Of a stretch of DNA of 64,000 bases, positions 35,062 through 37,527 are shown in pieces. This DNA is from Kofleriaceae bacterium. Its GTDB lineage: Bacteria > Myxococcota_A > Polyangia > Haliangiales > Haliangiaceae. The notes beneath the pieces are model-generated. The model made no database searches and was not told where the DNA came from. It worked only from the letters and a program-made list of their open reading frames with translations. Numbering within the stretch: the first letter of the stretch is position 1; each line of letters begins with the position of its first letter. The stretch covers positions 416,211 to 480,210 of the forward strand of contig JASNYD010000006.1 of assembly GCA_048500355.1 (NCBI GenBank). Direction: 5' to 3'. A program made the position numbers and the translations under genes.

Positions 35062-37527
35062 ATGCGCGCCCCGCTGCTCGCCGCCGCCGCCGTCACCGCG
35101 GCGCTCGGCGCCCGTCCCGCCGCCGCCGACGAGCTGACCAGCGCGCTCGATCAGGGCGTGGTCGAGATCTCGCACGCGGTCGAGGTCTCGGTCGCCGCCG
35201 GCGTCGCCCGCTACCGCGTGCGCCGCACCTTCGCCAATCCCGGCGCCGTCGCCGACGAGGCCCGGCTCGAGATCGACCTGCCCTACGGCGCCGCCGCCAC
35301 CGGCCTGCGCATCCGCGCCCGCCGGCAGTGGTTCGACGGCGACCTGCTCGAGGCGACCGCCGCCCTCGCGCGCTACCAGGAGCTCACCGGCCGCGGGCGG
35401 TGGGAGCCCAAGGATCCGGCGCTGCTGGCCTGGCGCTGGGCGGACAAGCTGGCGCTGCAGGTGTTCCCGGTGCTGCCCGGCGCCACCAGCACCGTCGAGT
35501 ACACGCTGACCGTGCCCACCCGCTACCGCGGCGGCCGGGTCTTCCTGTCGTACCCGCGGCCGCACACCGCCGGCAGCAACCTGGCCGAGCCGGTGGTGGT
35601 GGTGCGCCCGGCGTGGGCCGACGCCACGACCCCGATGCGGCTCGACGGCGAGCGCGTCGCCACCGACACCCCGCTGGTGCTGCGGCCCCCGGCGGACCCG
35701 CCGTGGCTGGCGGCGATCGAGCGCGACGAGCACGCGAGCTACGCCGCGAGCGCGATCGAGGTCGCGGCCACGCCGGCGACCCGCCGCACCTTCGCCGCCG
35801 CCACCGTCACCCTCGACCTCGAGCACACCTTCCGCGGCGACCTGCGGATCGCGCTGGTCACGCCGGCGGGCGCCGCGATCGAGCTCTTCGGCGGCGAGGG
35901 CGGCGGCGCCAACGACGTGCGCGGCCGCTTCCCGGTGACGCTCCCCGCCGGCACCACCGGCGCCGGCACCTGGCGGCTGGTGGTGTCGGATCACGCCGCG
36001 CTCGACACCGGCACGCTCGAGGGCTGGGCGCTCGAGCTCGAGCTCGGCGATGGCGCGGCGATCAAGGTCGCGGCCACCGACACCCCGGTGTTCGTGCCCG
36101 ATGCCCCCGAGCGCCCGTCCGACGGCGGCGTCGCCGTCATCGAGCTGGCGCCGCCGGCGATCCACACCGTCGCCGCGCGGCTCGGCCGGGTCGTGGCCTC
36201 GCCCGCCCACGCCTTCACCCGGCTCGAGCTCGACGTCGCCCCGGTGCTGCGGCCGCTGCCGCGACGACCGCAGGTGGTGTTCGCGATCGACGCCTCGCAC
36301 TCGATGGGCCCGGCCGGGATCGAGCTGCAGCTCGCGCTGGTGCGCGCCTACCTCGGCCACGTGCCCGACGCCGAGGTCGAGCTGGTGGTCTACCGGCGCG
36401 CCGCGAGCCGCCTGTTCGGCGCGTTCGTGCCGGCCCGCGAGCTCGACGCCCGGCTGGCCGCCGCCGTCGCCGCCGACCGGCTCGCGCCCGGCAACGGCAG
36501 CGCGCTCGACGACGCGGCGCGGGTCGCGGCCGCCGCGCTCGCGGGCCGCCCCGGCCCCCGCCGCGTCGTCCTGGTCTCCGACGCCCTGGTCCGCCCGCGC
36601 TGGGACGACGCGCCGGCCCGGGCCGCCCTCGCCGCCCTCCCCGCCGACACCGTCGTCCACGTCGTCGTCGCCAGCCCGCGCCACGGCGGCGAGCCGGCGC
36701 TCGAGCGCGACGACGATCACGCGCTGGCCCCGCTCGCCCTCGCCCACCGCGGCATCCTCGCCGAGCTCGCGGGCGGCCGCGACCCCGGCAAGGCCCTGCC
36801 CCGGCTCACCCTCGGGCTGGTGCGCCCGGTGCAGCTCGACCACGTCCAGCTCCGCGGCCTCGATCGCGCGACCGGCCGCGCGATCGAGCTCACCCACGGC
36901 CGCCACGACCGGCCCGTGCCCTCGACCTTGCCCGAGGGCGCCGGCCTGCGCCTGGTCGTCGACCACGCCCACGCGCCCACCCGCGTCGAGCTCACCGCCA
37001 TGATCTGGGGCGAGCGCTTCCGCCGCGTGATCGACGCCGACGCCGCGTTCTCGCGCGCCGCCGCCGCCTGGGTGTTCTCCGAGGACGACCACGGCGCGCT
37101 GTCGCCCGCCGAGATGATGACGGTGGCGATGCAGGGGCGCGCGGTGTCGCCGGTGACGTCGTACCTGGCGATCGAGCCCGGGGTCCGACCGTCGACGATC
37201 GGGCTCGAGCGGGAGGGCCAGGGCCGGCTGGGCAGCCGGTCGGTCCGGGCGCCGCGCGTGGTCATGGGCACGGCCCGCACCCGCGCCCGCCCCGACCCCG
37301 CGCCGCTGCTCGCCGCCGGGGTGCGCGCCTGCGTCGATCGCCACCGGCCGGCCGCCGGCTGGCAGCTCACCCTCGAGCTCGACACCTCCTACGACGAGAT
37401 CGTCGACGTGACCGCACCCGACGCGCGCACGCCGCTGGCGAGCTGCCTGGTCGAGGCGGCGTGGGCGGCGCGGCTGACCCCGGCCTTCGACCTCGGGCGC
37501 GAGCGCTTCACCCTCACGCTCCGCTGA
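35062..37527 (+). CDS. Secreted VIT-domain / proprotein-convertase P-domain / vWA-domain protein
   Basis: A signal peptide is followed by a VIT-like N-terminal domain. The P-domain (Homo B) signature is present (TVTLDLEHTFRGDLRIALVTPAGAAIELF...GTWRLVVSDHAALDTGTLEGWALELEL). The vWA MIDAS motif is VVFAIDASHSMG. The C-terminal region resembles that of the 16583..19108 protein. Confidence 0.8.
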   Translation: MRAPLLAAAAVTAALGARPAAADELTSALDQGVVEISHAVEVSVAAGVARYRVRRTFANPGAVADEARLEIDLPYGAAATGLRIRARRQWFDGDLLEATAALARYQELTGRGRWEPKDPALLAWRWADKLALQVFPVLPGATSTVEYTLTVPTRYRGGRVFLSYPRPHTAGSNLAEPVVVVRPAWADATTPMRLDGERVATDTPLVLRPPADPPWLAAIERDEHASYAASAIEVAATPATRRTFAAATVTLDLEHTFRGDLRIALVTPAGAAIELFGGEGGGANDVRGRFPVTLPAGTTGAGTWRLVVSDHAALDTGTLEGWALELELGDGAAIKVAATDTPVFVPDAPERPSDGGVAVIELAPPAIHTVAARLGRVVASPAHAFTRLELDVAPVLRPLPRRPQVVFAIDASHSMGPAGIELQLALVRAYLGHVPDAEVELVVYRRAASRLFGAFVPARELDARLAAAVAADRLAPGNGSALDDAARVAAAALAGRPGPRRVVLVSDALVRPRWDDAPARAALAALPADTVVHVVVASPRHGGEPALERDDDHALAPLALAHRGILAELAGGRDPGKALPRLTLGLVRPVQLDHVQLRGLDRATGRAIELTHGRHDRPVPSTLPEGAGLRLVVDHAHAPTRVELTAMIWGERFRRVIDADAAFSRAAAAWVFSEDDHGALSPAEMMTVAMQGRAVSPVTSYLAIEPGVRPSTIGLEREGQGRLGSRSVRAPRVVMGTARTRARPDPAPLLAAGVRACVDRHRPAAGWQLTLELDTSYDEIVDVTAPDARTPLASCLVEAAWAARLTPAFDLGRERFTLTLR

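Follow-up and report, generated by a model that had tools for sequence, protein, structure and literature searches.

A P-domain between the VIT and vWA regions of a predicted secreted protein family of Polyangia

P-domains (Homo B domains) are the usual companions of furin and kexin catalytic domains. In these proteases the P-domain packs on the S8 catalytic domain and stabilises it, and a conserved RGD tripeptide within the P-domain is a feature of the mammalian convertases. The inter-alpha-trypsin inhibitor heavy chains (ITIH) are secreted proteins with another plan: ITIH1 (6fpy) and ITIH4 (9c4f) both consist of a VIT ('vault protein inter-alpha-trypsin') sandwich, then a von Willebrand factor A (vWA) domain with a metal ion-dependent adhesion site (MIDAS), and then a C-terminal return segment. 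The summary given in PMC10539598 (citing Briggs et al. 2020) likens ITIH1 to an integrin assembly: a hybrid domain carries the vWA domain as an insertion, and a C-terminal strand runs back to the VIT sandwich. Here we analyse a gene that combines modules of both kinds, at 35062..37527 on the forward strand of a 64,000-nucleotide stretch of DNA from a Kofleriaceae bacterium (contig JASNYD010000006.1, positions 416,211 to 480,210; hereafter the window). Its 821-residue product carries a P-domain between VIT and vWA. Literature searches for a VIT–P-domain–vWA architecture found none, and as far as they reach the architecture is undescribed; the proteins themselves are already deposited and were named automatically by NCBI, where a protein 100% identical to ours (P0001) is called 'proprotein convertase P-domain-containing protein [Myxococcales bacterium]'.

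An initial annotation of this DNA, made from the letters alone, had proposed the P-domain and its position. The search that could have spoken against the proposal, a Pfam-A scan, found the domain: PF01483 (P_proprotein) matched with 54.7 bits (E 1.1e-14), far over the Pfam cut-off of 21, across profile positions 4–85 of 86, and the segment that the annotation had quoted (TFRGDL...WALELEL) falls within this match. The accompanying VIT and vWA assignments also scored over their cut-offs, at 34.7 bits for VIT and 31.6 bits for VWA_2 (residues 405–508, cut-off 27). In fold, the cassette that contains the domain is nearest to the furin P-domain, and its jelly-roll beta-sandwich is closer to solved P-domains than to other sandwiches. 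In sequence, it aligns at 32% identity with the corresponding domain of ASP, a kexin-like protease from Aeromonas that was also among the Foldseek matches of the full model. With furin, kexin and ASP it shares PF01483 and the motifs H-T-x-x-x-D-L-x-[IV]-x-L-x-x-P and W-x-L. It differs from them in that it sits inside the domain chain of another protein, is not preceded by an S8 domain and lacks a conserved RGD.

The description of the P-domain as stand-alone was borne out. Peptidase_S8 was absent from the window protein (Pfam, E ≤ 1), leaving no protease domain directly N-terminal of the P-domain as in kexin/furin-type convertases, and a scan of ten genes flanking it found none there either. 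A hidden Markov model of the family P-domain, run over the window and 84 loci (among them L005 and L007–L009, the closest to the window), matched in the family gene alone and found no other P-domain gene nearby.

The further claim that this context is atypical stands against the eukaryotic convertases. It is weaker among bacteria, because there the P-domain also behaves as a mobile module, as in the giant proteins P0251 and P0209. The nearest outside sequence relatives of the cassette are the P-domains of three giant surface proteins, P0208, P0209 and P0251, which are 2576–4158 residues long and carry 8–9 tandem or scattered copies. P0208 and P0209 each have an N-terminal S8 protease and nine P-domains; in P0209 the copies lie up to ~2000 residues away from S8, in the company of GSDH, PKD, cadherin-like and DUF285 domains. 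P0251 has eight P-domains and no S8 match.

The RGD to which the annotation had pointed is present in the window protein and carries no weight. Among 116 family members the position reads KSD in 49, RSD in 20, KGD in 16 and RGD in only 9, with D260 alone invariant. A conserved RGD as in the convertases is therefore not a trait of this family, and we rejected the tripeptide as a functional motif; it reflects the convertase-family consensus x-x-D-L and nothing more.

The insertion recurs in orthologues. Homologue searches returned at least 375 proteins, and the best 120, examined in detail, are nearly all 780–850 residues long and 49–98% identical. Precomputed matches to both VIT and PF01483 were present in 119 of these 120 (the exception is P0060). 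A scan of species-representative genomes yielded 222 relatives (genomic loci); the best 80, which were retained, all come from Myxococcota, class Polyangia, as far as their records name them, and are spread over Kofleriaceae, Haliangiales, Nannocystaceae and Polyangiaceae. Cultured Nannocystis punicea and N. pusilla are among the carriers, and some genomes hold two copies. As far as sampled, the P-bearing form (~800–830 residues) is restricted to Polyangia. Because VIT and P-domain occur together in nearly all of the best homologues, across Polyangia, the insertion is a trait conserved throughout the family and no accident of a single locus.

A sister form without the P-domain delimits the insertion. 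From an exhaustive search of representatives clustered at the 50% identity level (3265 matches), we took 117 full-length proteins out of the top 150. A P-domain was found in 35 of them (median 809 residues) and was missing from 82 (median 675.5 residues), which makes the P-less form the more diverse of the two at this identity level. By Pfam the short form consists of VIT and vWA with no P-domain; its members lie within proteins P0139–P0268 of the representative library. When P-less relatives were aligned with the window protein (alignment A3), seven of eight showed a clean gap at window residues ~214–346, and the remainder of the chain was common to both forms. The sister form, at ~675 residues, lacks exactly the block that carries the P-domain. 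P-less proteins such as P0143, P0146 and P0159 are 33–49% identical to the window protein outside the cassette and share with it the signal peptide, VIT, MIDAS, the SPVTS-EPG-RPS motif, the Gly linker and the Cys-pair domain; they differ in the missing residues ~214–346. Since nothing else is missing from them, the P-domain behaves in these alignments as a discrete cassette. A rough neighbour-joining tree built on the shared columns placed 31 of the 35 P-bearing tips in one clade together with 17 P-less tips, so that the two forms interleave. This did not bear out a single origin of the cassette and hints at its repeated gain or loss, in a tree too crude to separate gain, loss and poor resolution.

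Outside the cassette the protein most resembles the ITIH heavy chains. Foldseek searches with the full model returned ITIH1 (6fpy) as the best match (~734 columns, E 1.3e-21), and the similarity is colinear along the whole chain; TM-scores (template modelling scores) are low (0.25–0.32) because of the extra domains. The next matches were integrin beta headpieces, BatB and vWA-bearing pilus-tip adhesins. The family profile, searched against PDB sequences, matched ITIH4 (E 6.7e-6) and ITIH1, colinear in VIT and vWA. VIT, the best-conserved large domain (mean identity 64%), aligns with the N-termini of ITIH1 and ITIH4 (residues ~27–115), and in the structure model its beta-sandwich extends to about residue 212. 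Like the heavy chains, the window protein is secreted, in its case by prediction. The two nevertheless differ in several respects. Identity to ITIH1 and ITIH4 is only ~11–19%, and the window protein is bacterial and Polyangia-restricted. ITIH proteins have no P-domain between VIT and vWA, and their spacing is ~125 residues shorter: the window vWA starts ~125 residues later, the room being occupied by the P-domain. Unlike ITIH, the window protein has no Pfam match to ITI_HC_C, and we found in it neither that region nor the C-terminal cleavage/ester-linkage site of the mammalian heavy chains. Its own C-terminal domain of 80 residues with two cysteines is not found in ITIH.

All elements of the MIDAS expected of an ITIH-like protein (D-x-S-x-S, a T/S loop and a D) are in place. 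D410 and S412 are invariant, and residue 414 is S or T in 116 of 116 members and in 117 of 117 representatives, that is, in both subfamilies. In the presumed second loop no member departs from G479 or S480, and 115 of 116 keep N478. The third element comprises an invariant D507 and, before it, a residue 506 that is T or S throughout alignment A2 and T or S, or rarely G, among the representatives.

The C-terminal part holds the most conserved segment of the protein, residues 695–714 (mean identity 84%), which we presume to be akin to the ITIH 'VTPLTS' strand. This SPVTSY-A-EPG-RPS motif could also be a candidate processing or sorting site. It is followed by a linker with a mean identity of 20% and by a domain of ~80 residues with a Cys pair on two helices, in which C795 is invariant and C757 is kept in 116 of 117 representatives. 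For this domain, Pfam and NCBIfam scans of 25 members and a profile search of PDB sequences gave only noise, which suggests that it belongs to no known family. We also considered a TonB-C or AgmX/PglI-like tail, a guess that found no support in the Pfam, NCBIfam or PDB scans. Two families of secreted bacterial VIT proteins, TIGR03788 (marine sortase target) and TIGR04477 (XrtN target), show a weak likeness in the N-terminal VIT region and score far below threshold (24.3 and 18.8 bits, where the cut-offs are 551.65 and 250, respectively). The window protein ends in ...FTLTLR, with no LPXTG/PEP-CTERM type tail and no C-terminal hydrophobic tail, and so does not have the features of a sortase- or exosortase-sorted VIT protein.

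On these grounds we propose, with a probability of roughly 0.6, that the window protein is a secreted, non-enzymatic, metal-dependent binding protein of ITIH/integrin-like type with an accessory P-domain. The protein would be periplasmic or extracellular, an extracytoplasmic location being suggested by a hydrophobic signal sequence with A-x-A before D23; in the family alignment D23 is invariant and A20 and A22 are at least 90% conserved, and a hydrophobic N-terminus is found in 117 of 117 representatives. The Cys pair, conserved on two helices, is in keeping with an oxidising environment. In the proposed ITIH/integrin-beta-like plan, an N-terminal VIT sandwich and a vWA domain with an intact MIDAS would be completed by a C-terminal return strand, and a furin-type P-domain would have been spliced in whole after the sandwich and before the vWA region. 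The MIDAS would hold a divalent cation, to which the ligand, a protein or matrix component, would contribute an acidic side chain that completes the coordination. A rigid jelly-roll would be formed by the P-domain, packed on the scaffold, adding a second binding or stabilising surface and not serving a protease. The small disulfide-capable domain, tethered at the C terminus through a flexible Gly-rich linker, may anchor or oligomerise the protein. The full-length model has a mean predicted local distance difference test (pLDDT) of 90.2 and a predicted TM-score (pTM) of 0.86, and is poorly predicted only at the signal-peptide end, in one loop and at residues 708–739 (pLDDT <50 in this last stretch); the high pTM suggests that the domains keep a fixed mutual arrangement. 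A survey of fibrillar adhesins reported an adhesin-tip cluster with a P-domain as its best structural match (bioRxiv 10.1101/2021.12.07.471604), and by analogy such a cluster fits a binding role for the window protein.

Several points weigh against this proposal. No family member has been studied; signal-peptide cleavage, metal binding and the disulfide are predictions from sequence and model. The convertase P-domain stabilises a catalytic domain, so that a pure binding role here would be one by analogy. Processing or sorting that lies outside the proposed account is a possible meaning of the invariant EPGxRPS motif and of the C-terminal domain. Nor does any neighbouring gene appear conserved enough to suggest a partner: when 591 neighbour open reading frames (ORFs) were clustered, no family occurred in more than 25 of the 84 loci, and the largest cluster consisted of generic kinase-like genes.

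We weighed three other accounts of the protein and rate each well below the binding-protein proposal. One begins from the gene ~1 kb upstream (31445–33967, +), which encodes an 840-residue protein homologous to major vault protein (MVP), with matches to MVP_shoulder (89.5 bits) and Vault_3. The window protein might then be a vault accessory, a bacterial counterpart of the VIT–vWA part of VPARP/PARP4 and a partner of this MVP. VPARP has VIT and vWA according to the summary in PMC10539598, MVP and VIT–P–vWA families are both common in Kofleriaceae and Nannocystaceae, and the adjacency is kept in L005, L007, L008 and L009. MVP homologues have been reported in Myxococcales (bioRxiv 10.1101/872010) and in our searches were very abundant in Polyangia. 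Examined from both gene sides, however, the linkage is not conserved. By tblastn an MVP gene lies within 10 kb only in these four closest syntenic loci (98% identity for L005, 63–67% for L007–L009) and in none of the other 80 of 84; three long-contig neighbourhoods contain no MVP, and around three distant MVP genes no gene for a VIT, vWA or P-domain protein was seen. The distance from the end of the MVP gene to the VIT gene downstream is ~4.7 kb in L008 and L009, compared with ~1.1 kb in the window, where the divergent lipoprotein gene lies between them. A signal peptide is predicted for the VIT protein whereas vaults are cytoplasmic, and the protein contains no PARP or BRCT domain. With neither the conserved MVP association of a VPARP-like protein nor its PARP/BRCT domains and cytoplasmic location, we consider a functional link to MVP very unlikely, the least probable of the three accounts. 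The MVP homologue itself appears to be under unusually strong constraint, because it is 88–90% identical to its L007–L009 orthologues compared with 63–67% for the VIT gene.

Signalling offers another account, in which the protein would sense an extracellular ligand and relay the signal to a eukaryotic-like Ser/Thr kinase in the membrane; the kinase would be a distinct protein or, in certain lineages, part of the same chain. One protein of 1133 residues (P0107) reads as a kinase followed by VIT, P-domain and vWA, with the family signal peptide where a transmembrane anchor would be expected; its contig, however, measures 4.4 kb, and two genes may have been read through as one. In six loci (L021, L024, L033, L045, L046 and L067) a Pkinase gene sits immediately upstream in the same direction, and three of these six kinases have periplasmic STN/GspD-N0 domains. 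Yet the kinases are unrelated in architecture, about 5% of neighbour ORFs are kinase-like, and the adjacency does not exceed this local background (P = 0.09 for any adjacent slot and 0.13 for the upstream one). The scan of ten flanking genes in the window found no kinase, and we regard the kinase link as unlikely. Somewhat more doubtful still is a protease-directed role, in which the orphan P-domain would dock, stabilise or sequester an S8/kexin-like protease in trans and the scaffold would position or regulate that secreted protease. The packing of convertase P-domains on S8 domains, the furin-like fold of the cassette, its 32% identity to the P-domain of a bacterial kexin-like protease and its kinship with P-domains of giant S8 proteases all lend themselves to this idea. 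Against it, no S8 gene was found among the ten flanking genes, in the long-contig neighbourhoods or among recurrent neighbours, literature searches gave no precedent for a trans-acting P-domain, and, judging by the high pTM, the P-domain probably packs on its own scaffold already. A vWA system of anti-phage defence was set aside, as PADLOC had no match for the window protein or three neighbours.

A broader and speculative extension of the binding-protein proposal is that the cassette is a plug-in, gained or lost repeatedly, through which an ancient ITIH-like adhesin specific to Polyangia becomes a receptor with two sites, either an extracellular platform on which a secreted kexin-like protease would be held or controlled in trans or a receptor Ser/Thr kinase ectodomain, as in the fusion P0107. 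We think this improbable; if true, it would give a new use to a domain whose one known role so far is to stabilise convertases in cis. The architecture recombines well-known modules and does not amount to a new kind of system, and the family opens no long-standing question. Its size, its strong conservation and its restriction to the Polyangia, which are predatory and social, leave room for a part in the surface or matrix biology of these bacteria. The pair of forms with and without the cassette also provides a natural experiment on what a P-domain does without an attached protease.

Table 1 Features of the VIT/P-domain/vWA gene (window positions).
Feature	Position	Strand	Basis or remark
Whole gene	35062..37527	+	821-aa VIT / P-domain / vWA / C-terminal-domain protein; stop codon included
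Sec-type signal peptide, residues 1–22 (hydrophobic core, A-A-A then D23)	35062..35127	+	predicted, read from sequence
VIT domain, Pfam residues 37–147	35170..35502	+	Pfam 34.7 bits, cut-off 26.5
Inserted cassette, residues ~214–346	35701..36099	+	gap in P-less sister proteins
P-domain (Homo B) core, residues 247–325	35800..36036	+	Pfam PF01483
RGD tripeptide, residues 258–260	35833..35841	+	inside P-domain consensus H-T-[YF]-x-x-D-L
vWA domain, residues ~404–598 (modelled alpha/beta fold)	36271..36855	+	Pfam VWA_2 405–508
MIDAS motif D410-x-S412-x-S414	36289..36303	+	conservation
G-N-G-S-A loop, residues 477–481, inferred second MIDAS loop	36490..36504	+	conservation; aligns with ITIH4 'G-G-T-N' loop
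[TS]506-D507, third MIDAS element, end of beta strand	36577..36582	+	conservation
Motif V-S-P-V-T-S-Y-x-A-x-E-P-G-x-R-P-S-x-x-G, residues 695–714	37144..37203	+	near-invariant
Linker, Gly-rich in most members, predicted disordered	37204..37287	+	poorly conserved
C-terminal domain, ~80 aa (residues 743–821), alpha-beta-beta-alpha-beta, Cys pair C757/C795	37288..37524	+	model pLDDT >90

The ORF translates to the 821-residue protein that the initial annotation had quoted (Table 1), and its N terminus aligns with those of its homologues. Its G+C content at third codon positions (GC3) is 0.97, as expected in a genome with the ~76% G+C seen across the window, and because of this codon-position pattern we regard it as a real gene. 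The 67-bp spacer that had been given between its start and the divergent lipoprotein gene agrees with a lipoprotein start at 34994 (−). A palindromic ACATGG had been placed at the start of the VIT gene; the hexamer in fact lies at 34991–34996, at the lipoprotein start, and only its CATG core is palindromic, a trivial match to which we attach no weight.

The genes around it include two Cys-rich predicted lipoproteins (33987–34994, −, and 38405–39017, −), each with a signal peptide ending in Cys and no Pfam match; the former is kept only in the closest clade (L005–L009 and L011). A Peptidase_M50B-like membrane metalloprotease (37533–38315, −; 119 bits) is convergent with the VIT gene, with 5 bp between the stop codons, and its synteny with that gene is limited to the close clade. 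Two long conserved ORFs with a GC3 of 0.97, 39043–40584 (−; 513 residues) and 41313–44012 (+; 899 residues), had no Pfam match at E ≤ 0.01; by eye, the product of the former may resemble a class II photolyase. Further upstream, 27735–29954 (+) encodes a 739-residue protein in which HEAT repeats are fused to a C-terminal cyclophilin-type peptidyl-prolyl isomerase.

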